64,000 nucleotides of DNA. Origin: Candidatus Latescibacterota bacterium. GTDB lineage: Bacteria > Latescibacterota > UBA2968. Shown piece after piece: positions 131-36,997 of this stretch; position 1 is the first letter of the stretch; the number at the start of each line of letters is the position of its first letter. A program made the position numbers and the translations under genes. A model generated the notes under the pieces. The model had not been told where the DNA came from and did no database searches. It saw nothing but the letters and a program-made list of their open reading frames with translations. Location: positions 3,904,001-3,968,000 of the forward strand of contig OZ241986.1 of assembly GCA_965204375.1 (NCBI GenBank), written 5' to 3'.

Positions 131-288
131 TTGCTTTTCTCGTTGTGAAACTATACATTATGAAACAGAGCGGGTTGCGGTTTGCAGCACCGTTCCCATC
201 TCTGTATGTTGCGGCAGAAGGCCACAGGCTGCCAAACAGAGCGGCCTTCTGCCCAGCCCGCAGGCGCATCCCATGCCTGCGTTTTTTG
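131..288 (+). ncRNA. Repeated element A, copy 1: candidate ~125-nt sRNA with promoter and intrinsic terminator
   Basis: TTGCTT-17-TACATT promoter-like motif, then hairpin ACAGAG..CTCTGT, hairpin GGCAGAAGGCC..GGCCTTCTGCC, then CGCAGGC..GCCTGCG followed by a T-run. Six copies in the window. Confidence 0.5.
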
Positions 289-341
289 TACCACATTCGT
301 TTCCATATAGCGTTCTTCTCTATTTACAGCTTGAGATCAGA

Positions 342-617
342 CAAAAAACCGCGTGCCCTGTGACACGCGGTTAATTTTTGCAAAAAACAAAATGACCGGG
401 TGCCATCATCTGTGACATCCGGTTAATTTATAAAGCCGGCCAAATGCCACAGGCTGTCTAACTCTCTCTATAGCCCAGATTGAGCTCGGCCCTTTCGGAT
501 ACCGAAACCATAACATTTAACCGGCTGGAACACAAAATATATCCCAGCCTCCACCAGTTCGGACTATAAAATTAAGTTAGACGCGCTTATAATACAAGAT
601 TAGGCAACCCGTTGCAA
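342..617 (-). ncRNA. Repeated element B, copy 1: structured transcript (possibly small-peptide mRNA) with promoter and two terminator-like hairpins
   Basis: Minus-strand TTGCAA(612-617)-17-TATTAT(589-594). Long stem GCCGGTTAAATGTTATGG/CTGTGGCATTTGGCCGGC enclosing a CC-GAAA-GG hairpin (core 435-525). Terminator-like hairpins at 395-423 and 342-372. Confidence 0.5.
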
Positions 618-660
618 GAAAAAAATTGTTCAATCAATACAATTTGACATTTAGAAGCTG

Positions 661-2238
661 TCACATGCCCCATACGTCAATCTCTACCCCGCTGGTAGAT
701 GTCCGGCGAAAGTGGAAGATCTTGTCCTCCCAACGCTTACCTTCACGGCGGTCAAAAATCACCAGATGCCCCGCCTCTGCATCGCAGCGATCCATGTACT
801 CCGCCGTCTGTTCTAAACCCTCGGCAATGGTCTGCTCCAGGCTCTTGTGGAGTAATTTACATTCAATCACGATTTTGCGCGTCTGATCACCCTGCGGCCA
901 AACGATCAGCAGATCGGTGCGCCCACGCCCCAAACCATACTCCCGTTCAATGCGCCCGCCACTGTTCACAATGCGCTGCAAAAACGCCTGCAACAGCAAC
1001 TGCGGACCCGCCTCCTGATATTGGAACCGCGTCACCCAGTGCTCTGAGTGCTCGCGGAAAAAGGTCTGAAACTCGGCCATCAGCTTAATCACATCCAGGC
1101 TACCATCAGCAGTGACGTACCAGGCCGTATCCTCATTGAGTCCCACCTGGGCTGCGTAGGTCAATTCGCGGGGGACGATTTCCGCGTAGATCGGATTGGC
1201 AATGCGAAGTGGGTCGTTTGGGGCGATCAAACCCAGGTCGCGGACATACTCGAGATCGCGAGTGGAAAAGTCGCTGTTCTCTCCACCACTCAAGAGCGGT
1301 TCAATCACGCGCTGTACGCGTTCTTCCTGCAACTTATCGGCCAACTGATCCAGATGCGTCTCTCTACGCAGAATGAGTTGCTCTTGCGCTTCGAGAATAT
1401 CGTCTGCGGTAATCGGCCGATGCCGGTCTGCTGTGTCCCCGTCGTGGAAACATGTCTCATCTGCCAGCGCGTTCACCAGATAGGGTTGCCCTTGCGTCTG
1501 CGTCCAGATCGTCTCCAGCGCGGCGGCGGTAAACACCTGTCCCGTCTCCTCTGTATGCTGATTGAGCAGGGCAATCACCTCGTCCCGCGAGAAATCGCCC
1601 AGACGCAGAGATCGCGCTCTGATATTGAACGCACTTCCACCGGCAATAAGCGCGTTCTCTGCGGTTGATTGGATGCGATAATCGCGCACATCTCGCACCC
1701 CACACAGCACCACACTCTGCGGAAAGCCTGTCGGACGGCGGACATAGCCAGCCCGCAACTGCCGCAGCACGGACAGCAGCGAGTCGCCAATGAGCGCGTC
1801 AATCTCGTCAATGAGCAGCACCAATGGCTTTGGGGCCGACTCGGTCCAGCGCGTCAACGCTTCACGCAGGGCACCGTGGGGTCCGTACTTTGTCAGGATA
1901 TCGGGCCAAATATCGTCCAGAAATTCGTCGCCCAGTGTCGAACGCGCCCAGGAGGCCAATTCGCCCAGAATGGTGCGCATCACCTGTTCCACGTCTTCGC
2001 GTGCGGCCTGCCCACCTTCGATATTAACGTACACACAACGGTAGGTGTCTTCGGCATTGAGCAAGTCGCGCAGAGCCAACAATGCCGAAGTCTTGCCCGT
2101 CTGCCGGGGCGCGTGCAAGACAAAGTAGCGTTTGTCGCGTATAAACCGGCGCACATCGGCGAGGTTCAGCCGTTCCAGAGGCGGGATGCAGTAATGGTCT
2201 GCTGCCACCACCGGACCGGTCGTATTGAAGAAGCGCAT
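661..2238 (-). CDS. AAA-like ATPase with C-terminal PD-(D/E)XK nuclease domain (copy 1)
   Basis: Walker A APRQTGKTS, Walker B LLIDEID, C-terminal REY-GRTDL-VIECK-Q-Y nuclease motif. Confidence 0.85.
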   Translation of the reverse strand: MRFFNTTGPVVAADHYCIPPLERLNLADVRRFIRDKRYFVLHAPRQTGKTSALLALRDLLNAEDTYRCVYVNIEGGQAAREDVEQVMRTILGELASWARSTLGDEFLDDIWPDILTKYGPHGALREALTRWTESAPKPLVLLIDEIDALIGDSLLSVLRQLRAGYVRRPTGFPQSVVLCGVRDVRDYRIQSTAENALIAGGSAFNIRARSLRLGDFSRDEVIALLNQHTEETGQVFTAAALETIWTQTQGQPYLVNALADETCFHDGDTADRHRPITADDILEAQEQLILRRETHLDQLADKLQEERVQRVIEPLLSGGENSDFSTRDLEYVRDLGLIAPNDPLRIANPIYAEIVPRELTYAAQVGLNEDTAWYVTADGSLDVIKLMAEFQTFFREHSEHWVTRFQYQEAGPQLLLQAFLQRIVNSGGRIEREYGLGRGRTDLLIVWPQGDQTRKIVIECKLLHKSLEQTIAEGLEQTAEYMDRCDAEAGHLVIFDRREGKRWEDKIFHFRRTSTSGVEIDVWGM

Positions 2239-2731: not shown

Positions 2732-5296
2732 TTAACGCAACAGAAGAGGTCGATAAACCTTTTTGCCATCTGAGATTAAATTTCCTCCGGGACTCCACGC
2801 CAAATCGGTGACTGTACCACCTGTTCGAATCTGTTTTTCTCGTAGCCAACCATCTGTTCGCCAGAAGGTTATGATACCCTCTGCATCTCCAGCAGCGATA
2901 TACCGCCCATCTGGTCTAAAGGCAATAGCAAGGACATTGCCTGCACTCAGCCGTCGAACCCTCGTACCACTGCTCACATCCCAAATAATCACACTGGTAT
3001 TACTTCCGTCGTATCCATCGGTAGCGAGATACCTGCCATTTGGACTGAATGCGACAGCAAGGACATTGCCCCCAGGTACCATATACTGACTATTCACATC
3101 GTCTGTCCACCAACTTCTCACTTCCCAGAGGATCGCATTGCCATCATCATCACCTGTTGCGAGATATCGCCCATCAGGACTAAACGCGACATCATAGACC
3201 TCAGAGGCGTCTCGGTCTCCCCACCCCCTCCTTCTGCTGCCACTATTCAGGTCCCAGATCCACGCCCAGCGAAGATTCACGCCTATTGCGATATAATTCC
3301 CATTGGTGGGGCTAAACGCGACTGAGTTAACCCAGTCTGCATCACTACGCGACGCACCACCAACCCCCGTGCGTTGAATCTCTGTACCACTGATCACGTC
3401 TAACAGGACCACATGAGGTTCACTACTGCCGAATCCATCGGCTGCGAGATACCGCCCATCCGGACTGAACGCAACTGATTGGACTTTACCTCCAAGACTC
3501 TTCCACCAGAGATTCGTGCCACTGCTCACCTCCCAAAGACCCATATCGCCTTCGTCATCGCCTGTTGCGATATATCTTCCATTGGGACTAAAAGCAACTG
3601 AAAGACTGCGACTATAAAGAGAATAGACCTCCTGGCTACCAAGTGCAAGAGTCCCCGTCTTTAAGGGATACTCAAAGAAGTTGAAATCCCAAGATACGGC
3701 GGCAAAATTTTCACCCAACCCAATTTTGTCGAAAATTGCAGCTTGTACACCAGCGTACCCATCTACACCCGCATGTAACGACCAATTAATCCGGCTCTGT
3801 GCTCGATTCGTCACCGCAGTAAAATCCAGGTAAGGTTTCACACCAAAATAAGGTCCGGCTACAGCATACAAATTAAAATCTACTTGACCACGTATATAGC
3901 CGCGAATGGTCGCGGCACCTTGTAGTTCTACAGTAGAATCCAGCACTTTATAGGTCGCTTCGGAACCACCCGTCAAATTCTGCCACGAGCCATCTTTGTA
4001 TATCGTCCCAACCTCAACAGGCTTTGTCATTGTTATACCCGAAATGATCCGCCCGTCAAATTCAGCACTGAAATCCGCCCCCACGCCAAATTCCATCCTT
4101 ACCTCAACCACAACGGGAATTCCACCCACTGCAAAGAAGGTGTAATTGGTCACTTGCGCCACGGGTTGGTCTGCATTCAGAGTAAAAGCGCGAAATGCCT
4201 CCAGAGACATTTCTAATGTGACAACGAGATCGCCGTTTACTCCCACCTTTAGAGAATCTAACTTAGAACCTTCAATATTCATCTTAAACTCATACTCCGG
4301 CGAGAACGAAATATCGCAATTGGTCACACGTAGCCTTGCAGAAGCATCGTCATACAAAGTAATCGGGTCCTGTATTGTTGAATTTGCCAACGCGGGCTTT
4401 GTCGCTGGAAAACGAAAGGTCCGACTTATCGAAGCATCTTCAATCACCTCCGTCAAGGCGGCATCTCTGGTCATCACAACGACTTCACCGGCATCTTGTC
4501 GGCTCACGCTAACTACTTTCTTTAAAAAATAAGGCTCCACCGTATTGACCATGACATCACCGACTTTCACACGCGGTGCTGTTCCTTGTACCGAAAAGGT
4601 TATCTGATCGCCCGCTGTGGTCTGATACATCAAAGGCCCGTCCGGAACGCCCACCAGGACCGCAGCATCAGAGATAGAGACCACTTCCACTTTTACCGTA
4701 TCGGGCCTGCTGGCATTCTGCCTGTCATGCACCACCAGTTGAAACAGGTAAGTGCCCGGCCTTTGTGCGCGGAAGGCCGGTTGGGCAACGGTCATCTGGG
4801 AAAGAGCGACGGATTCACCTCCAACTTGACGCCATTCGTAGGTCAATGTTTCGCCTTCTGGGTCGCTACTATTGGTCCCGTCCAATGTCACCGTTTCACG
4901 TTTATCGACGCTTTGGTCTTCGCCTGCCTGAGCTATGGGCAATTGATTTTGTCGTGCTGTTTGCCCAAAGAAATCGACAAAGATGAGGAAGTCAGAAATC
5001 CCCACCACGCCATTGTTATCCAGATCGTACTTTGCATCATACGTCCCATCGCCGTGGCTTGACCCGAAATGATCGACAAATAGCAAAAAATCGGGAATAC
5101 CAACTATCCCATTGCCGTCAAAGTCAGCATCCGCTGCAGTTTGAGCAACCACAGGGCACACCAAACCCACCAGCATCACCGCAACAACAAATAACCGATA
5201 CAAAATAATTTCCTCCCAAATTGGAAAACGCCCTGACCTTACCCGTCGCTGGGTATTTCCTGGCAATACCAAAACAACGCCTATAAACGCCCACAC
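2732..5296 (-). CDS. Secreted protein: dockerin/EF-hand-like pair, PKD/Ig-like domain, C-terminal WD40 propeller (true start probably near 5200)
   Basis: Signal-like LFVVAVMLVGLVCPVVA, DFDGNGIVGIPDF, PIAQAGEDQ..TLDGTNSSDPEG, repeated VAFSP(D/N)GRYLA. Confidence 0.8.
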   Translation of the reverse strand: MWAFIGVVLVLPGNTQRRVRSGRFPIWEEIILYRLFVVAVMLVGLVCPVVAQTAADADFDGNGIVGIPDFLLFVDHFGSSHGDGTYDAKYDLDNNGVVGISDFLIFVDFFGQTARQNQLPIAQAGEDQSVDKRETVTLDGTNSSDPEGETLTYEWRQVGGESVALSQMTVAQPAFRAQRPGTYLFQLVVHDRQNASRPDTVKVEVVSISDAAVLVGVPDGPLMYQTTAGDQITFSVQGTAPRVKVGDVMVNTVEPYFLKKVVSVSRQDAGEVVVMTRDAALTEVIEDASISRTFRFPATKPALANSTIQDPITLYDDASARLRVTNCDISFSPEYEFKMNIEGSKLDSLKVGVNGDLVVTLEMSLEAFRAFTLNADQPVAQVTNYTFFAVGGIPVVVEVRMEFGVGADFSAEFDGRIISGITMTKPVEVGTIYKDGSWQNLTGGSEATYKVLDSTVELQGAATIRGYIRGQVDFNLYAVAGPYFGVKPYLDFTAVTNRAQSRINWSLHAGVDGYAGVQAAIFDKIGLGENFAAVSWDFNFFEYPLKTGTLALGSQEVYSLYSRSLSVAFSPNGRYIATGDDEGDMGLWEVSSGTNLWWKSLGGKVQSVAFSPDGRYLAADGFGSSEPHVVLLDVISGTEIQRTGVGGASRSDADWVNSVAFSPTNGNYIAIGVNLRWAWIWDLNSGSRRRGWGDRDASEVYDVAFSPDGRYLATGDDDGNAILWEVRSWWTDDVNSQYMVPGGNVLAVAFSPNGRYLATDGYDGSNTSVIIWDVSSGTRVRRLSAGNVLAIAFRPDGRYIAAGDAEGIITFWRTDGWLREKQIRTGGTVTDLAWSPGGNLISDGKKVYRPLLLR

Positions 5297-5494: not shown

Positions 5495-5720
5495 AATAAA
5501 AATAATTTTGAGTCCGAAACGCAGGCAAATTTCCTCGAGAGTATGCCCCGGCCTGGTTGTGCCGGGGCGTTTTTTTTAGTAAATTCATCAGGACTTACGC
5601 AACACCTCTACATCTTGTGATTTATTTGAAATAAGATATACAAGATGTTGTGGCAAAATGGCGTAATTTTCGGTAAACTGCGTAAGTCCTATTCATCCTA
5701 TTTGCGGCGTGGTGAAAAGA

Positions 5721-6636: not shown

Positions 6637-6762
6637 ACTTGATTTTGTGGTTGTGGAACGTTGCATTTCGACACAGAGCGGGTTGCGGTTTGCAAGACCG
6701 TTTCCCTCTCTGTATGTTGGCGGCAGAAGGCCACAGGCGCCAACCCGAGCGGCCTTCTTGCA
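6637..6762 (+). repeat. Repeated element A, copy 2 (truncated, no terminator)
   Basis: TTGATT-17-TGCATT, then GCGGGTTGCGGTTTGCAAGACCG..GGCAGAAGGCCACAGG..GGCCTTCT. Confidence 0.7.
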
Positions 6763-6802: not shown

Positions 6803-7500
6803 TCAAAACTGTACCCAAAACTGTACCGTAACTCCTCTGCCCTGAAGAGCTGGGATATGCGTATTGATTGATGCGGCACTTAGAGGATTATTCCTCACAT
6901 CAACCTCGTCTCCACTGCCCAATCCCGTATTTGCCACCAATGGTGAAAGATCAGAGATCCTATTGCCGGAAAGCCTCAGGCTTGTCAAATTTGTCAAACC
7001 TGACAGCGCAGATATGTCCGAGATGGTATTGCTCTGATAGAAAACTCTCGACCCGTTACATCCACTGCGGTAGTAAACTCTGCCCGTGCTAAAAAACCAG
7101 AAGATGGCAAGGTGACAAGCGTAGCAGGACCGAGGAAGTCTGTACCAATCGTTTCTCTTGGCAACGCAAACGGAAACGCACTGTTTTCCGCTCTGACATA
7201 AGTCAAAACAGACGTATCAAAGTCAAATTCAATTGCTACACCAACCAGTGGCGTAGTCGCACCTTTTGCAAAAACTTCAACCGCAATTTTTGTACCTTGT
7301 CCAGACACTGTGGCTGAAGTGACGCCATCATCTATCTGATTGCCTGGCCCCCCATCGGCAATCAGATCAAGTGACAGAACAGCATTGGCATTGGAGCCAG
7401 CAGAGGCCTGATCCACAAAGACCAGCAATGCAAGGGATATGACCAAAGCGAATACCTGACAAACTTTTCTCATTTTCATCCTCCTCATTGCATCCATCAA
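6803..7500 (-). pseudogene. Broken secreted protein: signal peptide + cohesin-like domain (6994-7500) joined out of frame to an internalin-like LRR C-terminus (6803-6997)
   Basis: VLSLDLIADGG..IAVEVFA..IEFDFD, then LRLSGNRISDLSPLVANTGL..NNPLS..HIPALQGRGVTV. Confidence 0.6.
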
Positions 7501-7515
7501 TCAAAAAAATGCAAC

Positions 7516-7654
7516 TTGATTTTGTGATTGTGGAACGTTACATTGTGAACGGATCGGGTTGCGGTTTGCAAGACCGTTTCCCTCTCTGTATGTTGGCGGC
7601 AGAAGGCCACAGGTGCCAACCCGAGCGGCCTTCTGCCCTGCCTGCGATTTTTTT
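7516..7654 (+). repeat. Repeated element A, copy 3
   Basis: TTGATT-17-TACATT, both hairpins, and a GCCTGCG-A-T7 terminator remnant. Confidence 0.7.
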
Positions 7655-7755
7655 ACACTACCCCTCCCTTCTTTCAGAATTTCCCAACAGTGTTCGGTCA
7701 AATCGCCCTGCTCTACTTATGACCCTTTCTCAATTTGTTGCCCTGGGATTAAGCA

Positions 7756-7988
7756 AAAAAATACCGGGTGCCATTACCACCTATGACACCCGGTTAATAT
7801 TATGCCGGTCAAATGCCACAGGCTGTGTGACTCACTCTATAGCCCAGATTGAGCTCGGCCCTTTCGGAGACCGAAACCATAGCATTTAACCGGCTGGAGA
7901 TTGCACATATTGTACCCGGCTCCCTCCAGCCGGCACTATAGAATGATTCACACGCCCTTATAGTACAACATCAAAAATTCCTTCGCAA
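7756..7988 (-). ncRNA. Repeated element B, copy 2
   Basis: TTGCGA(7983-7988)-17-TACTAT(7960-7965). Core 7804-7894. Terminator ACCGGGTGTCAT..ATGGCACCCGGT followed by a T-run. Confidence 0.5.
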
Positions 7989-8214
7989 CAAAAAAATCGC
8001 TCATAAGACGACCTGCAGGTGCTGTCTGGTATAGCGCGTGTCGGCCAGGGGAGCATGTCGCTCGCCTGATTGCACCGCCAAATAGGACACATTCACAAGC
8101 ATCTGGTTTCAAAAAAAAGTAACTATTCAGGACATTGTTGGAAACCCGTGTTGCTAACCACCTGTGTGGCAATAAAAGGCAAATGAATAAAAACAATTTG
8201 ACATTTAGAAATTA

Positions 8215-9792
8215 TCACATGCCCCATACGTCAATCTCTACCCCGCTGATAGACCTCCGGCGAAAGTGGAAGATCTTGTCCTCCCAACGCCTGCCTTCAC
8301 GACGGTCAAAAATCACCAGATGCCCTGCCTCTGCATCGCAACGATCCATGTACTCCGCTGTCTGTTCCAGACCCTCGGCAATGGTCTGCTCCAGGCTCTT
8401 GTGGAGTAATTTACATTCAATCACGATTTTGCGCGTCTGATCACCCTGCGGCCAGACGATCAGCAGATCGGTGCGTCCACGCCCCAAACCATACTCCCGT
8501 TCAATGCGCCCGCCACTGTTCACAATGCGCTGCAAAAACGCCTGCAACAGCAACTGCGGACCCGCCTCCTGATATTGGAACCGCGTCACCCAGTGCTCTG
8601 AGTGCTCGCGGAAAAAGGTCTGAAACTCGGCCATCAGCTTAATCACATCCAGGCTACCATCAGCAGTGACGTACCAGGCCGTATCCTCATTGAGTCCCAC
8701 CTGGGCTGCGTAGGTCAATTCGCGGGGGACGATTTCCGCGTAGATCGGATTGGCAATGCGAAGTGGGTCGTTTGGGGCGATCAAACCCAGGTCGCGGACA
8801 TACTCGAGATCGCGAGTGGAAAAGTCGCTGTTCTCTCCACCACTCAAGAGCGGTTCAATCACGCGCTGTACGCGTTCTTCCTGCAACTTATCGGCCAACT
8901 GATCCAGATGCGTCTCTCTACGCAGAATGAGTTGCTCTTGCGCTTCGAGAATATCGTCTGCGGTAATCGGCCGATGCCGGTCTGCTGTGTCCCCGTCGTG
9001 GAAACATGTCTCATCTGCCAGCGCGTTCACCAGATAGGGTTGCCCTTGCGTCTGCGTCCAGATCGTCTCCAGCGCGGCGGCGGTGAACACCTGTCCCGTC
9101 TCCTCTGTATGCTGATTGAGCAGGGCAATCACCTCGTCCCGCGAGAAATCGCCCAGACGCAGAGATCGCGCTCTGATATTGAACGCACTGCCACCGGCGA
9201 TAAGCGCGTTCTCTGCGGTTGATTGGATGCGGTAATCGCGCACATCGCGCACCCCGCACAGCACCACACTCTGCGGAAACCCCTCCGGGCGCAGGTCATA
9301 GCCAGCCCGCAACTGCCGCAGCACAGACAGCAGAGAATCGCCAATGAGCGCGTCTATCTCGTCAATGAGCAACACCAGAGGCTTTGGATCGGCTTTCGCC
9401 CAGCGCGTCAACGCCACACGCACTGCGGCGTGTGGACCAAACTCGGCGAGAATGCCGGACCAAATCTTGAGCAAAAATTCATCGTCAAGTGTCAGACTCG
9501 CCCGGACAGCCAACTCACCCAGAAAGGTACGCGTTGCCTGTTCCACATCTTCGTGTGCGGCCTGCCCGGCCTCGACATTAACATACACACAGCGGTAGGC
9601 ATCCTCAGCATTAAGCAGATCGCGCAGAGCCAACAATGCCGAAGTCTTGCCCGTCTGCCGGGGCGCGTGCAAAACGAAATAGCGTTTGTCGCGGATGAGC
9701 CGGCGCACATCGGCGAGGTTCAGCCGTTCCAGAGGCGGGATGCAGTAATGGTCTGCTGCCACCACTGGACCTGTCGTATTGAAGAAGCGCAT
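8215..9792 (-). CDS. AAA-like ATPase with PD-(D/E)XK nuclease domain (copy 2)
   Basis: Same length (525 aa) and motifs as 661..2238. Nearly identical except a divergent patch around aa 75-135 and a short one near aa 165-170. Confidence 0.85.
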   Translation of the reverse strand: MRFFNTTGPVVAADHYCIPPLERLNLADVRRLIRDKRYFVLHAPRQTGKTSALLALRDLLNAEDAYRCVYVNVEAGQAAHEDVEQATRTFLGELAVRASLTLDDEFLLKIWSGILAEFGPHAAVRVALTRWAKADPKPLVLLIDEIDALIGDSLLSVLRQLRAGYDLRPEGFPQSVVLCGVRDVRDYRIQSTAENALIAGGSAFNIRARSLRLGDFSRDEVIALLNQHTEETGQVFTAAALETIWTQTQGQPYLVNALADETCFHDGDTADRHRPITADDILEAQEQLILRRETHLDQLADKLQEERVQRVIEPLLSGGENSDFSTRDLEYVRDLGLIAPNDPLRIANPIYAEIVPRELTYAAQVGLNEDTAWYVTADGSLDVIKLMAEFQTFFREHSEHWVTRFQYQEAGPQLLLQAFLQRIVNSGGRIEREYGLGRGRTDLLIVWPQGDQTRKIVIECKLLHKSLEQTIAEGLEQTAEYMDRCDAEAGHLVIFDRREGRRWEDKIFHFRRRSISGVEIDVWGM

Positions 9793-9831: not shown

Positions 9832-9985
9832 ATAGTAGCCTATTTCTATGGGCCTGTCAACACTGGCAACACATATCGCTACATCTATTGCCCTGTTGAA
9901 TCTGTTGATCAAACAATAGCTCTACTTTAGGTGCAACATCACAAAAAGAAAACGCCCCAGCATCGTTGTGCCGGGGCGTTTTTTG
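9832..9985 (-). promoter_or_regulatory. Terminator + sigma70 promoter module (copy 2)
   Basis: TTGACA(9855-9860)-17-TACTAT(9832-9837). Confidence 0.75.
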
Positions 9986-11439: not shown

Positions 11440-11590
11440 AAAGTAGCCTATTTCTATGGGCCTGTCAACACTGGCAACACATATCGCTACATCCATTGCC
11501 TTGTTGAATCTGTTGATCAAACAATAGCTCTACTTTAGGTGCAACATCACAAAAAGAAAACGCCTCAGCATCGTTGTGCCGGGGCGTTTT
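11440..11590 (-). promoter_or_regulatory. Terminator + sigma70 promoter module (copy 3)
   Basis: TTGACA(11463-11468)-17-TACTTT, same sequence as the 2278 and 9832 modules. Confidence 0.7.
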
Positions 11591-11704
11591 TGCGTGTCAG
11601 GTAAATTCATCTTGAATTCACGCTATTTGCATAAGCGCAAATCGCGCTCAGTTTCGGGTCATCCCCCCAATACTTATAAAAATTTTCTGAGCATCAGAAG
11701 CAGG

Positions 11705-16487: not shown

Positions 16488-17516
16488 TCACGGCCCCCTG
16501 GATTCAGGGCGTTCGCGGGAAGGTTTTTTCGGCTCTATCTCCCTCGGTTCACGCTGTTCTCTAGAAGGGCGCTGTTCTCGGTAGGGATGCTGTCTGCGAT
16601 AGGTATCTGGTGCCACAGCCATCGTCCGCACAACCCGAAAACCGATGTAATTTGTGGTCCCATGCGCCCTGGCGTAATGCCGTGCGGATGAACGGAAAGG
16701 GACGAGAACACTGCGGCCATACTCGTACCAGGAACCACCCCGCAGGACGCGCATCTCGCAATTGCCTTCTCGCCAAACACTGCCATCGGATGGCGCACCG
16801 TCGTAGGTGTCATTCCAGCAGTCCGCTGTCCACTCCAGCACATTTCCGATCATATCGTACAAACCAAAATTGTTCGGGCGATACGACCCGACAGGTACTG
16901 TTGAACGTTTTTCTTCGGCACAATTATAAATAGGTCCCACATTTGCATAGGCACAAATCTCAGTCAGTCGGGGATCCTCCCCCCAATAATAGGGCGTTGG
17001 CGTGTCAGCCCGCACAGCATACTCCCACTCTGCCTCACTCAACAGACGATACGGCTTCCCCGTCTTGCGACTGAGCCACGAGACATATCTCTGCGCGTCG
17101 TTCCAATCCACATGGATCACCGGGCGATTGCCCCTGCCCCACTTTTCGTCTCCAGGCTTATGGCCATTGCACCCACCATCCGCCACACAGGCATCCCATT
17201 CGGCAAACGTTACCTCATATCGCCCCACGGCAATGGGCTGTCCAATCGTCACCAGATGCTGCGGCATTTCGGCCCGACGCACACTCAGCCCTCGTCTTGC
17301 GGAGCCCATCAGAAAGTGCCCCGGTGGCAAAATAACCACCTCTGGACATTCTGGACAATCCCGGAACACATCGCCGACAAACCTGATCGTCGGCTGCTGC
17401 CTGGGCAAAACCACCACATCCTGTGGCGGCATTTGCGCCGATGTAGTGCCCATATTGGACAAGACCCCCATCAACAGGACCCCACCCCAAATAAAAGCGC
17501 GTAATTTCAACGACAT
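16488..17516 (-). CDS. Secreted FGE-sulfatase (SUMF1) domain protein
   Basis: DCPECPE, YEVTFAEW, RLLSEAEWEYA, FGLYDMIGNVLEW, RVLRGGSW, IGFRVVR. Confidence 0.9.
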   Translation of the reverse strand: MSLKLRAFIWGGVLLMGVLSNMGTTSAQMPPQDVVVLPRQQPTIRFVGDVFRDCPECPEVVILPPGHFLMGSARRGLSVRRAEMPQHLVTIGQPIAVGRYEVTFAEWDACVADGGCNGHKPGDEKWGRGNRPVIHVDWNDAQRYVSWLSRKTGKPYRLLSEAEWEYAVRADTPTPYYWGEDPRLTEICAYANVGPIYNCAEEKRSTVPVGSYRPNNFGLYDMIGNVLEWTADCWNDTYDGAPSDGSVWREGNCEMRVLRGGSWYEYGRSVLVPFRSSARHYARAHGTTNYIGFRVVRTMAVAPDTYRRQHPYREQRPSREQREPREIEPKKPSRERPESRGP

Positions 17517-17534: not shown

Positions 17535-20393
17535 TTAACGCGACAAAAGCGGTTCGTAAATATTCTTGTTATCCGCGATTAAATTACCTCTCGGATTCCA
17601 CGCCAAATCTGTGATTGTACCACCTGTTTGAATCTGTTTTTCTATTTCCCAGGTATCTGTTCTCCAGAAAGTTATAATACCATCTTCGTCTCCGGCTGCG
17701 AGATACCGACCATCGGGTCTAAAGGTAAGTTCAAAGACATTGCCTGCATCTATCTCTCGAACCTTCCCTTCACGGATCACATCCCAAATCGTTATACTGG
17801 TATTATTGCCATCATATCCGTCGGCTGCGAGATACGGCTCATTCGGACTGAACGCCACGGCATAGACATTGCCTCCGGATGTCATAGAGCGACCATCCGC
17901 ATTATCTGTCCACCAACTGCTCACTTCCCACAGGTTCGCATTACCAGCATCATCTCCCGTAGCCAAATACCGCCCATTCGGACTGAACGCCACGGCATAA
18001 ACCTCGGAGACACCTTGCATTCCCCACCCGTTCAGACGGCCACCGCTCAGATCCCAGATCCAAGCATAGGGAAGATCAACGCCTATGGCGACATAATTCC
18101 CATTGGGGCTGAAGGCGATAGAATTGACACGCGTTGCTCTATCACTCGTCGCACCAACCCCCGTGCGCTGACTCTCTGTACCACTATCTACGCTCAGAAG
18201 AGCCACATAAGGGCCGTCCCTATCGGATCCATCTGCAGCGACATACCGCCCATCAGGGCTGAAAGTAACAACCACGACTTCACCCCCAAGACGCTTCCAC
18301 CAGATGTTCCTGCTGCTATCCAAATCCCACAGACCCACATCGCCCTGATCATCTCCTGTTGCGATATATCTTCCGTCGGGACTGAAAGCAACGGTAAGAG
18401 TCCCGCTATAAAGCGCATAGACCGCCAGATCATCCCCATCACTGATCAAATGCGCGTGAAGCGTATATTCCCCTGCATCTGAGGCATCATAGCCTTCTAC
18501 TTTGACATAATACGTACCCGCATTTACGGATCGTTCTATTCTAAAATTATCTCCGCTTCCACCATCGTCATTATTCGTCAGCGCAGAACCAGAACTATTT
18601 TGTAGCGTACCCCGCGTATCCAGATTGCCCGTCGTATAAACGATCAACCTGCCAGACTCGTTTACCCGCACGCTAAAATAATCGACATCACCGTCAGTTT
18701 CTATGCGTCCTGAAAGTGAACTGCCCAACACCAGGCTGGTCGCACCAGACCTGCTATTGCTGTAATCATCATCCGGCGCACCTCCACCGCCGCCACTAAT
18801 GGAGATATTCAGGGCAATACCCCCGAGGTCACGCAATCCAGTAACGAGGTCTTCGACATGAGAACCATCAAGATTCGAACGCTGGATCTTATTTGTGCTG
18901 CGGTTCGTCCAGTACATCTTCCCGCCAGCCACATCCAGAGCAATGCTATTTGGACCTTTAAAAAGATGCAGGCCGCCCAATCTGGTGACGAGGTCTTCCA
19001 CATTGGAACCATCAAGATTCGAACGCTGGATCTTATATGCGCCCTCATTTGTCCAGTATATCTTCCCGCCAGCCACATCCAGAGCGATACCACTGGGAAA
19101 AATCCCCATCCCAGCGAGGCGAATATCTTCGACATTGGAACCATTCATATTCGCACGCTGGATCTTATATACTTTGTCTCCACCCGCTGAAGTCGTCCAG
19201 TACATCTTCCCACCAGCCACATCCAGAGCAATACGATTTGGATCGGGTAATCCGGTGACGAGGTCTTCCACATTGGAACCATCAAGATTCGCACGCTGGA
19301 TCTTACCAGCAAACGCGGCTGTCCAGTATATTTTTCCCCTTCTCAGATCCAGGGCAATACCATTGGGGGTACGCAATCCAGTAACGAGGTCTTCCACATT
19401 GGAACCATCAAGATTTGCACGCTGGATCTTACCATCATGCCAATTCGCCCAGTACATTTTGCCCCCAGCCACATCCAGAGCGATGCCTTTTACCCCGCGG
19501 TAATCTGAGCCGATGGCGACGAGGTCTTCGACATTAGAACCATCGAGATTCGCGCGCTGGATATCGTACGCATCTTCTTTTGTCCAGTACATCTTCGGCG
19601 CACTATCCCCGCTACCCCCACCACTCCCACCACCCCCGCCACCTCCACCAGAGGGAGATACTGTTTGCCCGAAGTCATTGACCAGGATCACAAAATCTGA
19701 AAAACCAATCGCACCATCGCTATCCAGATCGTACTTCGCCTGATATTTGCCATCGCCCCGGCGCGATCCAAACACATTTGCAAACTGCACAAAGTCGGCA
19801 AAGCCAACCACCCCATCGCCGTCAAAATCGGGTGTGGGAGCCACGGACCCCGACTGCAACGACACACTCACACTCAGCGTCACGCGCTCAAATTGTCCTC
19901 CCCGACCGAGTTCACCGCGCACCAGCCGAATATTCGTACCCGAAAACGCCGCCATCGTGCGAAAGCGAATCGCCCCAACCAGACCCGTATTGACCGTAGC
20001 CTGACCACCCAGAGCACCAATACTAATCTGTACGAAGGTAGGACTTGTACCATGCTCTGCTGGCAGCACAACAACATTTGGCAGCACATCGCCCGCATCA
20101 AAACCGTCATAAATGACCTGACTCGCATCGTACTCAAAACGAACAGAAATACCATTCGCATTTTGAATGTCTCTGCCAAAAATCTGAATGGCAACAACCT
20201 GATCGAACGATACATTGGCAGACAGCACCGCTTGATCCCCCGCTGCACTGTTCACATCCAGAGACAGGGAAAAACTGCTCTGCGAGGACAGCGACAGCGG
20301 AAAAATCAAAAACGCGATGGCTATGATGACAAAAGGCGTACTACGCATGGTTTTTTTCAAAGAATTCGAAGTGGTTTGCAGGACCGTTTCCAT
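17535..20393 (-). CDS. Secreted multidomain protein: cohesin-like, dockerin-like, YWTD (LDLR-B) propeller, PPC domain, WD40 propeller (probable start 20348)
   Basis: Repeats GIALDVAGGKMYWT..KIQRANLDGSNVEDLV, GDVDYFSV..NDDGG, VAFSPNGRYLA. Confidence 0.85.
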   Translation of the reverse strand: METVLQTTSNSLKKTMRSTPFVIIAIAFLIFPLSLSSQSSFSLSLDVNSAAGDQAVLSANVSFDQVVAIQIFGRDIQNANGISVRFEYDASQVIYDGFDAGDVLPNVVVLPAEHGTSPTFVQISIGALGGQATVNTGLVGAIRFRTMAAFSGTNIRLVRGELGRGGQFERVTLSVSVSLQSGSVAPTPDFDGDGVVGFADFVQFANVFGSRRGDGKYQAKYDLDSDGAIGFSDFVILVNDFGQTVSPSGGGGGGGGSGGGSGDSAPKMYWTKEDAYDIQRANLDGSNVEDLVAIGSDYRGVKGIALDVAGGKMYWANWHDGKIQRANLDGSNVEDLVTGLRTPNGIALDLRRGKIYWTAAFAGKIQRANLDGSNVEDLVTGLPDPNRIALDVAGGKMYWTTSAGGDKVYKIQRANMNGSNVEDIRLAGMGIFPSGIALDVAGGKIYWTNEGAYKIQRSNLDGSNVEDLVTRLGGLHLFKGPNSIALDVAGGKMYWTNRSTNKIQRSNLDGSHVEDLVTGLRDLGGIALNISISGGGGGAPDDDYSNSRSGATSLVLGSSLSGRIETDGDVDYFSVRVNESGRLIVYTTGNLDTRGTLQNSSGSALTNNDDGGSGDNFRIERSVNAGTYYVKVEGYDASDAGEYTLHAHLISDGDDLAVYALYSGTLTVAFSPDGRYIATGDDQGDVGLWDLDSSRNIWWKRLGGEVVVVTFSPDGRYVAADGSDRDGPYVALLSVDSGTESQRTGVGATSDRATRVNSIAFSPNGNYVAIGVDLPYAWIWDLSGGRLNGWGMQGVSEVYAVAFSPNGRYLATGDDAGNANLWEVSSWWTDNADGRSMTSGGNVYAVAFSPNEPYLAADGYDGNNTSITIWDVIREGKVREIDAGNVFELTFRPDGRYLAAGDEDGIITFWRTDTWEIEKQIQTGGTITDLAWNPRGNLIADNKNIYEPLLSR

Positions 20394-20413
20394 CTTTGTA
20401 TGTCGAAGCAGAA
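20371..20413 (+). repeat. Repeated element A, degenerate partial copy 4
   Basis: GTGGTTTGCAGGACCGTTTCCATCTTTGTATGTCGAAGCAGAA matches the first half of A. Confidence 0.55.
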
Positions 20414-20503
20414 ATCCAAATTTTTCAGCTTACCTTCATAAAGCGTATCACAGGTCGGTTTAATCGTTTCAGTATTTTCCGCCGTCTTTATCGAGCGGTC
20501 AGA

Positions 20504-21302: not shown

Positions 21303-23114
21303 TTACGGAAAGCGAATTTCAGGCGACATTTTTTTTAATAATTCCTCGCGCAAATTGGGAGATACAAAAGCCTCGTCGAGAGCGTTGCGCTGGAGGCGCA
21401 AAATTTCGAGGTGGGTTAGCCCCGGACAGAGACGGGCGGTAAGGATCAAATTATCGCTGAGGCTTGCATCAGAGATGCCGATATTGTCCGTATTGACGGT
21501 TACGCGCACACCTTCTTTGAGATATTTAGACAACGGATAGGTTTTTTCTGATTCTTTCTTATCATCTAAGGGATAGCCACCGCGGATCTGAAAGTTGGCA
21601 TAAGGACACATTTCAATGCCAATACCGCGATTGACAACCGAGCGCAGGGTTTCTTTGGATTCGAGGAGGTTTAGGGCATGCCCGAGTCTGCGAGCATTGA
21701 GGTCAAATATGGCACGCCAAATGCCTTCGGCATCGTCGTTTTCTCCAGCGTGAACCGTGAGGGCCAGGCCGCAACGGTGAATGGCCGTGAACTCTTCGCG
21801 AAAATAGTGCGCCCGGGTTGTCTCATCTTCGTATCCAGCCAAATCAACACCCACCACGCGACACGAGTTTTCATCAGTCCAGTGTTCGGTTGCAGTAATA
21901 GCGAGCGATAGGTGTCGGGAGATTCCAGCCCGATAATCGCCACCGGATTGTCGCGTTCCAATGATAATCAAGTTGATGTGGCATTTCCCATCTTTCATAC
22001 AAGATTGAAATGTCTCGCGGATATCAACAAGCACATCCCATGGGGATCTGCCCAGTTTCTCAGCGACATAGTTGGCGGGTGAACAACGAATCTCAGCGTA
22101 CACGATATTTTGTTCGCATAGATGATCATAGAGCAGTTTGCACTGCTTCTTCAAGCATCCAGGATCGCACAAGATTAGAGAACCGTTGTTGTCGCCAAGG
22201 TGGCGATATTGCTCAAGGCCAATGGGGTCTGGCGGCAGCGGCCACTTTTCTGGAATTGAACGGTTGAGTTTATCGGGAATGTCCCTGTCTGCTTGTGCGC
22301 GGACCTCGTCGAGTTGTTTCCCTCGAGTGGCAAATCCGCCCAGATGGCAATGCAGTTCAATTTTAGGAAGTGCCTTGATCCACATCTCGTCCTTTTTGTG
22401 ATCGAGAGGTGAATTGAGCCAATCGAGACCACGTTTGGGCCAAGTTGCCAATTCAGCAAACGGAAAGCTCGGCAGTTCTTCCCACGAACTGGCGATGCGA
22501 TGCGAGCGTTCGATGATTTCCTTGTGCCATTCTCGAAATTTCTGATCTGGAGCGGATAGCCATTTCACATCATTACAGATCTTGTTCTCTATTAGCGGGT
22601 AATCACAGTACGACGCTTGGTGAAATTGCGGCCACCCTTGTTCGGCCCCCAGACGAATCCACCTGAGAAGCTCATCCTCTTTTGCCTTTATAATCTCCTT
22701 GATCGTGGAAGGTGGTGCATCGGCTGCGAGGACATGGAACACTTCTGCTGCGCCGAGAATTTCTGCTGCTTTTTGCATGGCTGAGGACATAGTTTTGAAT
22801 CCACCAGTTAAGCAAATATAGCGTTCTTCGGGCCTGGTACCTGATGATAAGAGCCAGCGGTATAGCACTTCCTCAAAACGGAAGTGGTCCTGCTCGGTCT
22901 CAAAATCTGTAAAGCACTTGACGCGGCTAATATTCAAACATGTGGGCTTGTCCCTAAAGAATTTCTGTATTAAATCTACCTTCGGCGACTCGGTAGTAAG
23001 TACGTGAACGGCCTTAAAAGTTACATCTGGAAAGAGAAAAGCCTCGGGCACGATGGCCGGTGAAGTTCCCAACGAGACAAAAAGATGTAGTTTTGGATCA
23101 TGTGAATGTGACAT
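21303..23114 (-). CDS. cad1: CARF-adenosine deaminase effector (Cad1/CAAD-like)
   Basis: N-terminal CARF (VSLGTSPAIVPE..LTGGFKTMS). Deaminase motifs ELHCHLGG, YAEIRCSP, GVDLAG, VHAGE, RLGHAL, VNTDN. Confidence 0.85.
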   Translation of the reverse strand: MSHSHDPKLHLFVSLGTSPAIVPEAFLFPDVTFKAVHVLTTESPKVDLIQKFFRDKPTCLNISRVKCFTDFETEQDHFRFEEVLYRWLLSSGTRPEERYICLTGGFKTMSSAMQKAAEILGAAEVFHVLAADAPPSTIKEIIKAKEDELLRWIRLGAEQGWPQFHQASYCDYPLIENKICNDVKWLSAPDQKFREWHKEIIERSHRIASSWEELPSFPFAELATWPKRGLDWLNSPLDHKKDEMWIKALPKIELHCHLGGFATRGKQLDEVRAQADRDIPDKLNRSIPEKWPLPPDPIGLEQYRHLGDNNGSLILCDPGCLKKQCKLLYDHLCEQNIVYAEIRCSPANYVAEKLGRSPWDVLVDIRETFQSCMKDGKCHINLIIIGTRQSGGDYRAGISRHLSLAITATEHWTDENSCRVVGVDLAGYEDETTRAHYFREEFTAIHRCGLALTVHAGENDDAEGIWRAIFDLNARRLGHALNLLESKETLRSVVNRGIGIEMCPYANFQIRGGYPLDDKKESEKTYPLSKYLKEGVRVTVNTDNIGISDASLSDNLILTARLCPGLTHLEILRLQRNALDEAFVSPNLREELLKKMSPEIRFP

Positions 23115-23259
23115 TGTTTCCTCTTGATTTTATAGCGATGAGAATATGGTGATAATGTGTAGGTAATCCAGTGTCTTTCTATCCTTTTTATGGATTTTCG
23201 TATAAGACCTTTTTATGACCATAGCGTCGAAGGGGCAATGAATCTCCGGTTATTATGGA

Positions 23260-25665
23260 TTACGATGTTGATTGCTTTACGACATTCGCCGCCTGGAGGC
23301 CCTTAGGTCCCTGGGTGATGTTAAATTCGACCAGGTCACCTTCGGACAAAGACTTAAAGCCTTCTGCTTGAATTGCAGAGAAATGGACGAAAACATCTTC
23401 GCCCCCTTCTTGCTCGATAAAGCCGTAGCCCTTGCCGTCGTTGAACCACTTAACTCTTCCCTGATAAGAGCCACTGGAGGCTTGGTGACCGCCATCACCG
23501 GAAGACTGAGAAGAAGAATATAAAAATCCTTCTTTTCCGGGTTTTGGTAAGGGCTTCGTATTTTTGAACCACTTGAAGTTTTCGCCTTTTGGATCTGGTT
23601 CTGGATTTTCTCGGGGATAGTGAACAGGTGCTTTATCAGAAGGACCAGATGCGATAGCGAGGAATGATTTGATCACATCGTGATCTTCGAGACTGTTGTT
23701 GCCTATGCAAAGTGCCTGCCTGAATAACTCGATAAATTCCTCTTTGGCCTTCGCCACATCGGTAATCGCTGAATTTCCACTCGCTGGGATGAGATTTTCA
23801 TACTCATTTTGCAGAGCGGCGTGATTCCGGATATCTACCCCGACTAATTTTGTAGTCACCGAACCAAATCCCAACGGCTTGCCTGCGCCAACTTTTAGAT
23901 GATATTTCTTATCAAGTGAGCAAAGCCACAGAAGCGCGCCGAGTTCTGCTTTATTCAGGTTGTCGAAACGAATTTCCACCTTGAATTTGGTCTTTGGCTT
24001 CACCCAGGCGCGTATCGAAACATTTTGATTATCTCGCTGCTGGACACCATGTCCCTTCCATCGAACATACTCCCGGTACGCGCCATTCGTCTTTTGAGGG
24101 CCACGGGAGTTTTGGGCATCCTCCTTCGCTTTATCTGCGTTCCAATATCCATCTGGAACACCGTGATGATGCAGATAAAATTTCCGTCCTGACAGTTTCG
24201 TTGCGCTATCATAAGTAGAGGCACCGGACGCATAAAACAGTGCTTGCTGTGGTTTGGGTGAGGACAAGATTGATAGAGGTAGGCTGTACTGCGAGTTAGA
24301 TTTACCAAATCGATGAATGGCGTCTTCAGCCTCGGTTAAGCATTGCACTTTGCGAATTCTGAGATGGCCTTTGTAAGCATTGGTTGAACCGGTATCCCCC
24401 TGGTGTACCCAGCCGAAAACCCGATCCGCGGGTGAAAATTCGGCTTCGCTATCCGCTGGTAAAAATTCTTCATTCTTCAACAAGTCCAAATATGGAGCTT
24501 TCTTTGCGAGTTCTCTCGATATCATAACGGGATAGAGACCGATGATATTGCCTTTCTGGTCAACGCGGGCATAACAGAGATCGCCTGGTTTCAATTTCGC
24601 AGCAGACTTCGTATAAATCTGGCGCGACCAGGCGGTTTTGCCCGGTTCTCCACCGAGATAAGCGTCCGGTTTCTGGGAGTTTTGCTTTCGAGTATGGAGA
24701 TCGTCCTCGTGAATGTCTTGATAGTCGCGGACAAGCTGGTTCCATTCAGTCAGCCATTTTTTATCAATAGATTCTGTAGGCACCTTGTTGAATGAGAAAA
24801 ATACCCGCTCGTCGTGTTTTTTCTTAATGTTCTGATTTGTGCGGCAGACGAATCCGCCTTTGATCAACCTGTACTCTTCGGTTTTGTGGTGCCTATTTCC
24901 ACCATACCAATGGTCATTTTTCTGTGCCTCCTTGACGCTCGAGGGATAGTTTGAATGAGTACAACCCGCGCGGCGGATATGAGTAACTCGCCAATAAGAA
25001 AAATTAGGGTTCTTGTGATTAACCAAATTGAGCCAGCAATGGACCTCATCGCTGTGTTCCGGAATCCCTCCATCCGGATATTTGACGGCGTGAGTACCTA
25101 TGATAGGCCCTTTGGTACTGGTCTTGCTACTACTCCCTTCATACATAGGCAACCACGCCGCGTACATTACACTTTTTGGAACCTGCCAACGACAGGTTTT
25201 TAAGTCCCAGGAGGGATTCTTGCTATGTTCCCCACGATACAACTCCAGTTCCTTACCGCATGTCGAAATTCTCGCTGGCACCATAGACAAGCCATCACGC
25301 GCTTCCATTCGCCGTGCCAATGGCGTCTTATAGCGTTCATCGAGAACACCTAAACGCGAACAGGTGATGGCTTCGTATGCCGCACGCAACGCCCCTTTGA
25401 GCGAGGTCGGGCGCAGAATTGGTTTGCCGCAATGCGTCGTTAGAAGGTCAAGAGTTTTATGACCGTTCCGAAGAAGAGTTAGATTTGCGGGATCAGAGAG
25501 CAGAAGCGGTGATACGGCCTTCAGCTCGATCTCAATAGACCCCTCGAAAAAGCCCTTTTTGTACGCACTGTGACCCGGGGGTTTCCCCTGGGCAAGGCCA
25601 TCGGTTCCGACATTCCCAAAGGGTACAAAATTATACGGATTGTGAAATCTCTTATTGGACATCAC
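23260..25665 (-). CDS. cas7: Type III-D Cas7-insertion RAMP (TIGR03986-like) with C-terminal cold-shock domain
   Basis: [36 protein letters not shown], ending in [34 protein letters not shown]. Confidence 0.85.
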
Positions 25666-25686
25666 CGGTCTCCCATTATGTTACTC

Positions 25687-31836: not shown

Positions 31837-31868
31837 TGTAGCTCCCTTTGTATATTTTCAATCCACAG

Positions 31869-33635: not shown

Positions 33636-33656
33636 GAGTAACTCCTTTCCTGAGAT

Positions 33657-35342: not shown

Positions 35343-35411
35343 GACGCATCTCTTGATTGTTTTTAAGTATTGAAAGGTCTGTATTAGAGACCTAAAAACC
35401 CTGACCGACTG

Positions 35412-36736: not shown

Positions 36737-36997
36737 CGCTCCTTTCTAACTCGCTGAGTCACAATTTGTTTGAGAGCCTGTTGCGACTCAGGCCATATTG
36801 ACAGGCGTACGCCCATCCATTTTGATTCAACCATTGCAATCCCATTCTGATAATCCCTTGTAGGACAAGAAATTACAAATTCGCGACCCAGAATAGGATG
36901 AAATGATTTACCTAATTTCCACTGCTTAAAAGCAGTATCAATCCAATGCGCCATATTGACAACCTCTTTTTAATCAGAGTCGCGAAGCTCCGGATAT
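36737..36997 (-). promoter_or_regulatory. CRISPR leader
   Basis: Relatively AT-rich non-coding region between cas2 and the first repeat; contains GCCATATTGACA twice. Confidence 0.7.

Follow-up and report, generated by a model that had tools for sequence, protein, structure and literature searches.

A conserved pair of convergent small RNA genes in Latescibacterota, one of them resembling the c4 antisense RNAs

The c4 antisense RNAs of P1-like phages bind sequence-specifically around the ribosome-binding site of the ant-operon mRNA and are matured by RNase P (PMC12197685, PMC5320573, PMC11143913). Here we analysed a 64,000-nucleotide (nt) stretch of the genome of a Candidatus Latescibacterota bacterium (GenBank assembly GCA_965204375.1, contig OZ241986.1, positions 3,904,001 to 3,968,000), called the window throughout. 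At window positions 131-620, two small RNA (sRNA) genes, A on the + strand and B on the - strand, face each other as convergent promoter-to-terminator units, and B resembles c4. In the annotated region of P1 c4, a closing stem is found together with a UUCG-tetraloop hairpin and a second hairpin with loop b'. The element a' is the junction that follows, leading into the 3' arm of that stem. The P1 leader carries the sites a1 (TTGACAG) and b1 (GTTAGTGC), which stand against the junction a' and the loop b', and the ribosome-binding region of icd carries a2 and b2.

Three Rfam families, C4 (RF01695), c4-2 (RF02944) and c4-a1b1 (RF03163), form the clan CL00128. The 2010 survey listed C4 for Proteobacteria and phages (PMC2864571), and the authors of c4-2 regard it as a likely distant homologue of the earlier-described RNA (PMC5737381). 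A chromosomal family was reported in Acinetobacter baumannii. That study describes 21 c4-like sRNAs encoded on the chromosome, which have a 5' extension and a variable a' loop and are apparently processed from longer transcripts, a GGW processing site, and two further sRNAs antisense to the c4-like sRNAs (PMC5320573). The latter two overlap a member of the family, with 79-90% complementarity over all three regions, and the family itself reaches the Rfam C4 model.

B has much of this design. As in c4 of P1 and P7, its closing stem encloses a tetraloop hairpin, its putative recognition elements, which vary among copies, are placed after this hairpin and ahead of the closing-stem 3' arm, and an upstream leader on the same transcript is complementary to these elements, as a1/b1 are to a'/b'. 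The recognition sequence and the leader change together among copies, as they do between P1 and P7. There are also differences from c4. The closing stem of B has 19 base pairs (bp) compared with about 10-17, the leader complementarity extends over about 21-25 bp compared with 7+8 nt, B carries its own terminator without an a2/b2 target downstream, and the host is a member of Latescibacterota without phage or immunity genes nearby. Like Group 1 of A. baumannii, B is a multi-copy chromosomal c4-like family with a variable recognition segment and a 5' extension, whereas it falls short of the c4-2 model. Like Group 2, A is a separate sRNA that resembles the reverse complement of the c4-like family and lies convergent or antisense to a member. 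Unlike Group 2, A does not overlap B, is complementary to it over 9-26 nt only and outnumbers it, and hairpin 1 of A is conserved and unrelated to B.

B is best regarded as kin of the c4 antisense RNAs of P1-like phages, encoded on the chromosome in several copies. On this view it would work like a c4 RNA and is probably a distant relative. We do not file it as a confirmed member of the clan, because it fails the Rfam cut-off and has neither a cis target nor a phage setting. We lean slightly towards B being a c4-type base-pairing regulator with a self-masking leader. For the explanation as a whole, in which two convergent sRNA genes comprise a c4-like B with a masked recognition segment and A as its possible partner, our confidence is about even.

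Two conserved small RNA genes

A1 extends over about 165-289 (+), or about 125 nt, and B1 from about 584 to 383 or 340 (-). A search of the organism's own 6.34-megabase (Mb) genome by BLAST and nhmmer found seven copies of A and three of B, and every B (3/3) faces an A. The first pair was matched at 131-300 (+) for A1 and 331-620 (-) for B1, and the matches to B2 and B3 spanned 7755-7971 and 49750-49965. The second pair consists of A3 at 7516-7658 (+), a degenerate copy without a clean terminator hairpin, and B2 at 7755-7988 (-). The variable segment of B2 differs from that of B1, and its promoter (TTGCGA-17-TACTAT, 7988-7960, -) is the equivalent of the B1 promoter. The third pair, A4 at 46256-46417 (+) and B3 at 49750-49982 (-), is separated by two adjacent insertion sequences at 46513-49720, identified by their inverted ends and transposases. 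The first has 21-bp inverted ends (46513-46533/48336-48356) and a DDE_Tnp_1_6 transposase, and the second has 19-bp ends (48353-48371/49702-49720) and an IS256-type Transposase_mut. After removal of both, the A4-B3 gap is about 140 nt. Further A copies are the solitary A2 at 6639-6761 (+), which lacks a terminator, the solitary A5 at 63537-63681 (+), which adjoins an aminotransferase gene at the island edge, a fragment with hairpin 1 only at 20370-20418 (+), and one copy outside the window. A first-pass annotation, made by a model from the letters of the window, had proposed these three face-to-face pairs, and the search bore them out. It had placed a single IS256 block inside the third pair; the insertion is present, but only one of its two elements is of the IS256 type.

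The promoter of A1 (131-159, +) consists of a -35 element TTGCTT at 131-136, a 17-nt spacer and a -10 element TACATT at 154-159. It scores 8/12 in the consensus scan, under the 9/12 cut-off of that scan. Its spacing is conserved over divergent spacer sequences, as the first-pass annotation had noted, with TTGNTT-17-TANNTT present in 25 of 30 A copies of relatives. In the predicted fold, hairpin 1 (165-205, +) is followed by hairpin 2 (213-253, +), which has perfect 11-bp arms and a conserved apical loop ACAGGCUGCCAAAC. The terminator scan placed an intrinsic terminator at 259-281 (+), followed by a T-run that would give the U-tail. The promoter motif, the two hairpins and the terminator had been described in the first pass, and all were confirmed there. 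The minimum free energy (MFE) fold of A1 beats all 200 shuffles (z -4.57).

Relatives were searched by DNA, and covariance models were then built from 19 B and 30 A copies. In the A alignment, 25 pairs are paired in 94.2% of cells with 22 double-change cells, a result reached by none of 500 shuffles. When the partners were slid by 1-3 columns, pairing fell to 46-69%. The strand of A is fixed by its G-U pairs. The apical loop is among the best-conserved parts of A, and the terminators of both A and B are kept though their sequence differs among copies. Rfam gave no match for A at E<=10. A, with its pair of hairpins and its terminator, represents a new sRNA family that is genus-specific and commoner than B. 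Two other candidate features of A were rejected. A sigma-54 promoter opposite hairpin 1, fitted by eye in some copies, loses the GC of its -12 element in the L040 subfamily, and CsrA-type GGA motifs in the loops are not conserved.

The B1 promoter at 617-589 (-), with TTGCAA, a 17-nt spacer and TATTAT, is the sole site in 1-700 that passes the consensus promoter scan. It is followed by a 5'-terminal leader at 588-559 (-), complementary to the variable segment of B1 itself, and by a 5' hairpin at 549-523 (-) in the MFE fold, between leader and core. In the alignment, the stem of this hairpin is kept among copies and its sequence varies. The c4-like core (525-435, -) is made of the closing stem P1, with the 5' arm at 525-508 and the junction and 3' arm at 455-435, the P2 hairpin with a GAAA tetraloop at 507-485, and a hypervariable segment at 478-456 between P2 and the 3' arm of P1. 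The fold and the terminator scan both gave two terminators on the - strand, one at 423-395 with a U-tail to about 380 and a duplicate at 372-347 with a U-tail to about 339. The promoter and terminator named by the first-pass annotation are thus present, and the terminator is in fact tandem, with repeats at 358-377 and 410-429 that are 90% identical. Read from these elements, B would be a primary transcript of about 200 nt, consisting of leader, hairpin, core and intrinsic terminator.

The structure of B is well supported by comparison. The MFE fold of B1 beats all 200 shuffles (z -5.52). In the core, 39 pairs are 97.3% paired and nine pairs show double changes, which none of 500 shuffles reached, and sliding the partners dropped pairing to 24-43%. 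P1 alone has 19 pairs, with 99% of cells paired and double changes in three pairs, and P2 has eight pairs, 97% paired, under its GAAA loop. The terminator stem also covaries. The inner part of P1 is rich in AU and GU, and the pair 19-83 is UG in all 19 copies. Conserved G-U pairs would be A-C on the opposite strand, which confines the support for the structures to the given strand. P1 begins with GCCGGUU, whose GGU resembles the GGW processing site reported in A. baumannii (PMC5320573), a likeness that does not by itself indicate processing by RNase P.

Of 20 genomes of one Latescibacterota genus, 16 carry A, with 73 matches in all; the 10 genomes searched from other genera of the family have none. 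B was sought in a sample of 151 genomes of the phylum: 10 of the 19 genomes of the genus have it, as does a single genome of a second genus of the family, and one weak match lies elsewhere. The genomes counted are kin, and the counts are not independent. Full-length B copies number 19, of which 16 came from the covariance-model search and three, in G004, from the DNA search. A convergent A, with its 3' end facing that of B, accompanies 15 of these 19, at a gap of 4-392 nt or, across the two insertion sequences, 3.3 kilobases (kb). About one in five A copies is accompanied by B. A scan of metagenomes with a B-core pattern found two loci (L138 and L139), both with B and without A in the recovered DNA. 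A pattern scan of genome contigs gave 67 loci, about the number that we estimated for chance, and the Latescibacterota records among them include copies already known.

Both units are conserved in relatives and fold better than all 200 shuffles, so they are more than chance. We are highly confident that both are real, conserved sRNA genes. The first-pass view of two independent convergent sRNA genes, neither protein genes nor simple repeats, is borne out by structure and conservation.

Some copies are arranged in unusual ways. At L061 (G016:C1:2013000-2032999), six A copies stand in a row on one strand, 2.6-4 kb apart and without B, between opposite-strand genes for large cadherin-like/fn3 proteins and two sigma-54 activators with Reg_prop/Y_Y_Y sensor domains. 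At L020 (G002) and L011 (G016), about 1440-1700 (-), the 5' half of B, with the 5' arm of the closing stem and the tetraloop hairpin, ends after the conserved loop and is directly followed by AAGGAG and an open reading frame starting with ATG (MLYKLGSTDGKF); this looks like the insertion of a gene into a B copy. In the B copy at L021 (G017:C1:2814682-2817730), the variable segment, which follows the tetraloop hairpin and precedes the closing-stem 3' arm, is interrupted by an insertion of about 170 nt.

Leader, variable segment and the c4 model

The leader of B, its first 25-30 nt, begins immediately downstream of the -10 box and is complementary to the variable segment of that RNA. A leader:variable duplex was predicted in 19/19 copies, with energies of -18.6 to -43 kcal/mol. 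The segment is highly diverse, with 17 distinct variable 17-mers among 21 B copies, and its flanks are nearly invariant. We compared leaders in 21 copies, one of 22 being dropped because its landmark motif is missing. The cognate duplex was -17.4 +/- 4.1 kcal/mol versus -9.4 +/- 2.7 kcal/mol for 354 non-cognate combinations, and the own leader was unbeaten in 18 of the 21 copies. Of the remaining three, G004a and G017a each have one foreign leader that binds better, and G004b has a leader that still fits the B1-type segment. In G004b (L046, G004:C1:5466432-5469573), the own variable segment is changed and its duplex has -8.1 kcal/mol at rank 13. This copy may be recombinant or decaying.

The variable helix also carries compensatory changes, in five of nine pairs (for example, UA:9/CG:7 and CG:8/GC:5/UA:3). 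This alignment has 18 copies; B2, which does not differ from B3 in this part, was left out. In its conserved half, the helix is 68.5% paired, a lower value that is largely due to the difficulty of aligning the leader. The leader:variable helix crosses P1 and thus has pseudoknot topology. A third core hairpin is weakly predicted, since that segment pairs with the leader instead. We propose that the leader would keep the recognition segment covered as long as B is neither processed nor remodelled. Once released, this segment would pair with a copy-specific target RNA and repress this target.

Rfam gave zero matches at the gathering score in the 64-kb window, including riboswitch and other curated cis-regulatory models. 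Below the threshold, B recurrently resembles c4-2, which the first-pass annotation had overlooked. The B1 core matches c4-2 at 442-516 (-) with 23.4 bits and B2 matches it with 21.7 bits. A scan of the whole genome at E<=1 returned three matches, which are exactly the three B copies (21.7-23.4 bits). The same model recurs at E<=1 in 9 of 20 relatives' loci, with a best score of 33.3 bits (E 0.0038), and matches two of four further loci. No other Rfam family was consistent at E<=10 in the window or recurrent in the loci of the 20 relatives.

Several results speak against a c4-type regulator with a masked segment. The gathering cut-off of c4-2 is 41 bits, and no B copy reaches it (21.7-33.3 bits). 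In the second genus of the family, neither of the two B copies matched c4-2 at E<=1. The c4-a1b1 model did not match the leader at E<=10, so the likeness of the leader is in design and not in sequence. The leader:variable helix and P1 cross and may either coexist or alternate, which counts against a settled fold. A search for an a2/b2-like target in the 900 nt that follow B on its own strand found none, cognate and non-cognate energies being alike. Within +/-100 kb on both strands, the best non-self sites, at window 3605 (-) inside a WD40 gene and at genome 3818510, had -32.0 and -33.5 kcal/mol, which does not exceed the background tail. No phage immunity, repressor, antirepressor or integrase family was found among the proteins scanned (39 Pfam, 21 PHROGs; PADLOC was also run). 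Four sponge or coral metatranscriptome runs contain parts of a 2.2-kb query, most contigs lying on the ATPase gene next to the locus. In these RNA libraries, contigs X2, X3 and X4, from three of the runs and from relatives 90-99% alike, cover the A core (161-240), and only X4 covers B (401-640). Such assembled contigs carry no strand, ends or level, and DNA carry-over is possible, so they are no evidence of transcription either way.

Other searches for targets of B gave no significant site. The scan of long sequences on the opposite strand with RNAduplex returned large-loop artefacts without cognate preference. A strict a2-N-b2 pattern had nine non-self matches genome-wide compared with about 29 expected by our own estimate. 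One of the nine lies in the window at 63105-63149 (-), in the 5' part of a TM2-domain gene (62702-63181), where GTCTAACT, 32 nt and TATAG resemble the leader sites of B1. As a B1 target this site is only a lead and is not significant, and such matches are expected by chance. We also rejected the repeated FSPDG-coding motif of WD40 genes as a partner of the conserved loop of B, which had 3081 matches (at least 10 nt, G-U allowed) against 3873 +/- 1707 for shuffled loops.

Complementarity between A and B and other readings of the locus

The 5' arm and loop of hairpin 2 in A1 (212-237, +) are complementary to the junction and P1 3' arm of B1 (437-462, -). On the + strand, these segments form a 26-nt direct repeat that is 81% identical. 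The first-pass annotation had seen part of it as a 15/17 match between GCCACAGGCTGCCAAAC and GCCACAGGCTGTCTAAC, which is real. Its second match, GAGC-GGCC against GAGCTCGGCC, is present but has only 4+4 bp with a 2-nt bulge and is mostly unpicked by duplex prediction. Among copies, the complementarity comprises 9-11 nt of perfect match and up to about 18 bp, involves CGGCAGAAGGCCACAGGCUG in A and CAGCCUGUGGCAUUUGRCCG in B, and hits the invariant 3' arm of the closing stem of B. The predicted A1:B1 duplex has -35.2 kcal/mol. The mean over 14 pairs is -29.8 kcal/mol, versus -19.8 +/- 4.1 for shuffled B; a fifteenth pair was dropped because the search pattern missed its A. In local alignment, A scores 19.2 against the reverse complement of B, 15.8 in the same sense and 14.6 against shuffled sequence. 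The complementarity of A and B is real and family-wide.

A offers C where the own stem of B has U opposite G, so the A:B duplex is predicted to be stronger than the inner stem of B. The loop and 5' arm of A hairpin 2 would pair with the invariant junction and 3' arm of P1, which many G-U pairs hold in B. A would thereby antagonise, or act as a partner to, every copy of B in the same way.

A number of observations count against such pairing. Non-cognate A:B pairs have -29.7 kcal/mol, equal to the -29.8 kcal/mol of cognate pairs. B keeps GCCUGUGG without A nearby (G021, G052, G011 and the metagenome loci L138 and L139), and A keeps CCACAGGC where B was not found (G003, G005, G007, G008, G013 and G020). 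In G017, B has GCCUAUGG and the neighbouring A is unchanged, leaving an uncompensated C-A mismatch. In G009, B has the same variant, the A loop is different and the match is lost. In addition, both complementary segments lie largely within helices of their own RNAs. The complementarity is a family-level property without compensatory change, and for this reason we treat A-B pairing as a proposal. Of the antisense control suggested in the first pass, the non-overlapping, conserved complementarity and the structured nature of B were confirmed, but control of B by A has neither cognate specificity nor compensatory change behind it, and across homologues the match is degraded without compensation in the two most divergent pairs (G017 and G009). 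We consider it doubtful that A acts on B. A full two-RNA circuit is a still more distant prospect and, in our judgement, quite unlikely. In such a circuit, B would be a masked hypervariable c4-type family, A would be a dedicated anti-sRNA that invades the weak G-U-rich closing stem common to all B, and the two RNAs would jointly determine which nearby, fast-diversifying genes for secreted repeat proteins are expressed.

A and B may instead be functionally unrelated sRNA genes in one intergenic cassette that is copied within a variable island. The shared 9-26 nt may then be a relic of partial inverted duplication, in which hairpin 2 of A derives from the reverse complement of the closing stem of B, and the convergence would reflect back-to-back terminators. 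The family-wide rather than pair-specific complementarity, the lack of compensatory change with the lost match in G009, the conservation of each motif without its partner, and the roughly four in five of 73 A matches that lack B are all in line with this. The likeness of A to the reverse complement of B spans both arms of hairpin 2 with an internal deletion, and 49772-50071, which overlaps B3, is identical to 7778-8077, which overlaps B2, indicating recent cassette copying. A mere relic does not sit well with the convergent A kept by 15 of 19 full-length B copies though flanking genes, variable segments of B and terminators of A have diverged, with the conservation of the A loop, or with the Watson-Crick partners that A gives where the B stem has G-U. 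We regard this explanation as possible but unlikely.

The gene neighbourhood bears on whether B acts in cis. In the window, the locus is surrounded by an AAA_35/PDDEXK_9 ATPase, secreted repeat proteins and a type III CRISPR-Cas locus. Three copies of the 525-amino-acid ATPase gene lie upstream of B and small signal-peptide protein genes lie downstream. In other genomes, the neighbours of B encode ankyrin, LRR, WD40/CARDB, PEGA and outer-membrane proteins. B might be read as a 5' leader or attenuator of the next same-strand gene, usually one for a signal-peptide protein, with A as an antisense RNA that insulates or interferes with read-through. The first open reading frame of at least 60 amino acids downstream of B on the same strand often starts like a signal peptide when read by eye. 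At L028, L029 and L030 (G017) and L014 (G019), only the 3' arm of the B closing stem and the terminator are left, 120-155 nt upstream of paralogous secreted-protein genes and with no A recognised between; these proteins share ANANA(R/V)LSLDLI with the small protein at window 6994-7500. A is transcribed away from the neighbouring signal-peptide protein gene, and its promoter is less than 80 nt from a divergent reading-frame start in 13 of 30 copies, so that the two promoters stand back to back or overlap. However, B owns a promoter and a strong covarying terminator, its downstream genes vary by copy (ankyrin, LRR, WD40, PEGA), and at two island edges (L063 and L064) the next gene is on the other strand. 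Rfam gave no riboswitch or leader match, and the alternative pairing CCGGUU/AACCGG, tried as an antiterminator, was rejected because it rests on the palindrome CCGG and is too weak against the 12-bp terminator. A cis-acting B is improbable on this evidence.

Coding potential decides against a type I toxin-antitoxin-like module, in which one RNA would encode a toxic peptide and the other would be the antisense antitoxin. Some type I loci, such as tisB/istR-1, shoB/ohsC and zor/orz, have non-overlapping antisense RNAs. Like these, A and B are two small neighbouring units with short trans complementarity, here convergent and non-overlapping; unlike these, they lack a conserved small hydrophobic frame with a ribosome-binding site. 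In A, at most 12 of 30 copies share any reading frame, and indels shift the frames. The sole recurrent ATG frame of B, at the core start, is kept in 18 of 19 copies, but its length varies among copies from 13 to 43 codons, it lacks a Shine-Dalgarno sequence, its product (MLWFRYPKGPSSIWAIE) is not hydrophobic, and its conservation follows the RNA helices. No Rfam type I family was found at threshold; the lone match, on the terminator hairpin, has 22.6 bits against a cut-off of 50. The complementarity also lies in the closing-stem 3' arm of a non-coding core and not at a start codon. In the absence of a conserved toxin frame in A or B, the type I architecture suggested by the first-pass annotation is unsupported, and we give it hardly any credence. 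Equally far-fetched are non-functional repeats of the miniature inverted-repeat transposable element or repetitive extragenic palindromic type whose hairpins mimic RNA genes: several intergenic copies per genome do lie in a repeat-rich island with insertion sequences, but the units have internal hairpins only, without terminal inverted repeats or target duplications around them, are few (seven A and three B in 6.3 Mb), carry strand-specific G-U pairs and compensatory changes, and keep promoter hexamers and terminators while spacers and terminator sequences change.

Neighbouring features and significance

Each of the ATPase copies lies directly upstream of a B (661-2238, 8215-9792 and 51905-52204). 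The 525-amino-acid protein has AAA_35/AAA_22 domains and a weak PD-(D/E)XK (PDDEXK_9) C-terminus, and the third copy is a fragment beside an insertion sequence. The copies had no PADLOC or PHROGs match, and relatives of them are abundant in the RNA-library contigs. Large same-strand repeat-protein genes at 2732-5296, 17535-20393, 41533-44274 and 54177-57980 share N-terminal regions (repeat family D4) and encode WD40, PKD, CARDB, LDL-receptor class B, Sel1 and caspase domains. The interval 16488-17516 encodes an FGE-sulfatase-domain protein. Four genes are each followed by one of a family of near-identical terminator-like hairpins (AGAAAACGCCCCAGC...GCCGGGGCGTTTTTT), at 2393-2430, 5538-5575, 9947-9984 and 11555-11592.

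The CRISPR-Cas locus at 21303-41152 is type III-D-like, with Cas10, Csx19, Cas7/Cas5 IIId-type proteins, Cas1 and Cas6. It also encodes a CARF-adenosine-deaminase protein (21303-23114), a CARF-HEPN Csx1/Csm6 protein (31869-33635) and a PrimPol/AEP-TOTE protein with TPR repeats (38268-40199). The CRISPR array, at about 35389-36736, has 18 repeats with a 37-nt unit. An 801-amino-acid Cas7/Csm3-like RAMP protein (23260-25665) carries a C-terminal cold-shock domain (residues 735-797), and we know of no description of such a fusion. Between the Csx1 gene and the array, 33657-35342 encodes a group II intron-type reverse transcriptase/maturase with HNH, which may be an intron insertion or an adaptation-associated reverse transcriptase.

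Latescibacterota is a phylum without cultured members, and we believe its regulatory RNAs to be essentially uncharted, though no search of the literature was aimed at this point. One false lead is removed by this analysis, as there is no type I toxin at the locus. The convergent pairing of A and B offers a testable case of an sRNA acting on an sRNA, and the 17 leader-matched variants provide a clean natural series for the evolution of RNA specificity. If the two-RNA circuit were true, the logic of phage c4 immunity would have been carried over to host control of a variable secreted-protein repertoire. If B is indeed a c4-type RNA, antisense regulators of this type would extend beyond Proteobacteria and phages, as host-encoded multi-copy families in Latescibacterota.

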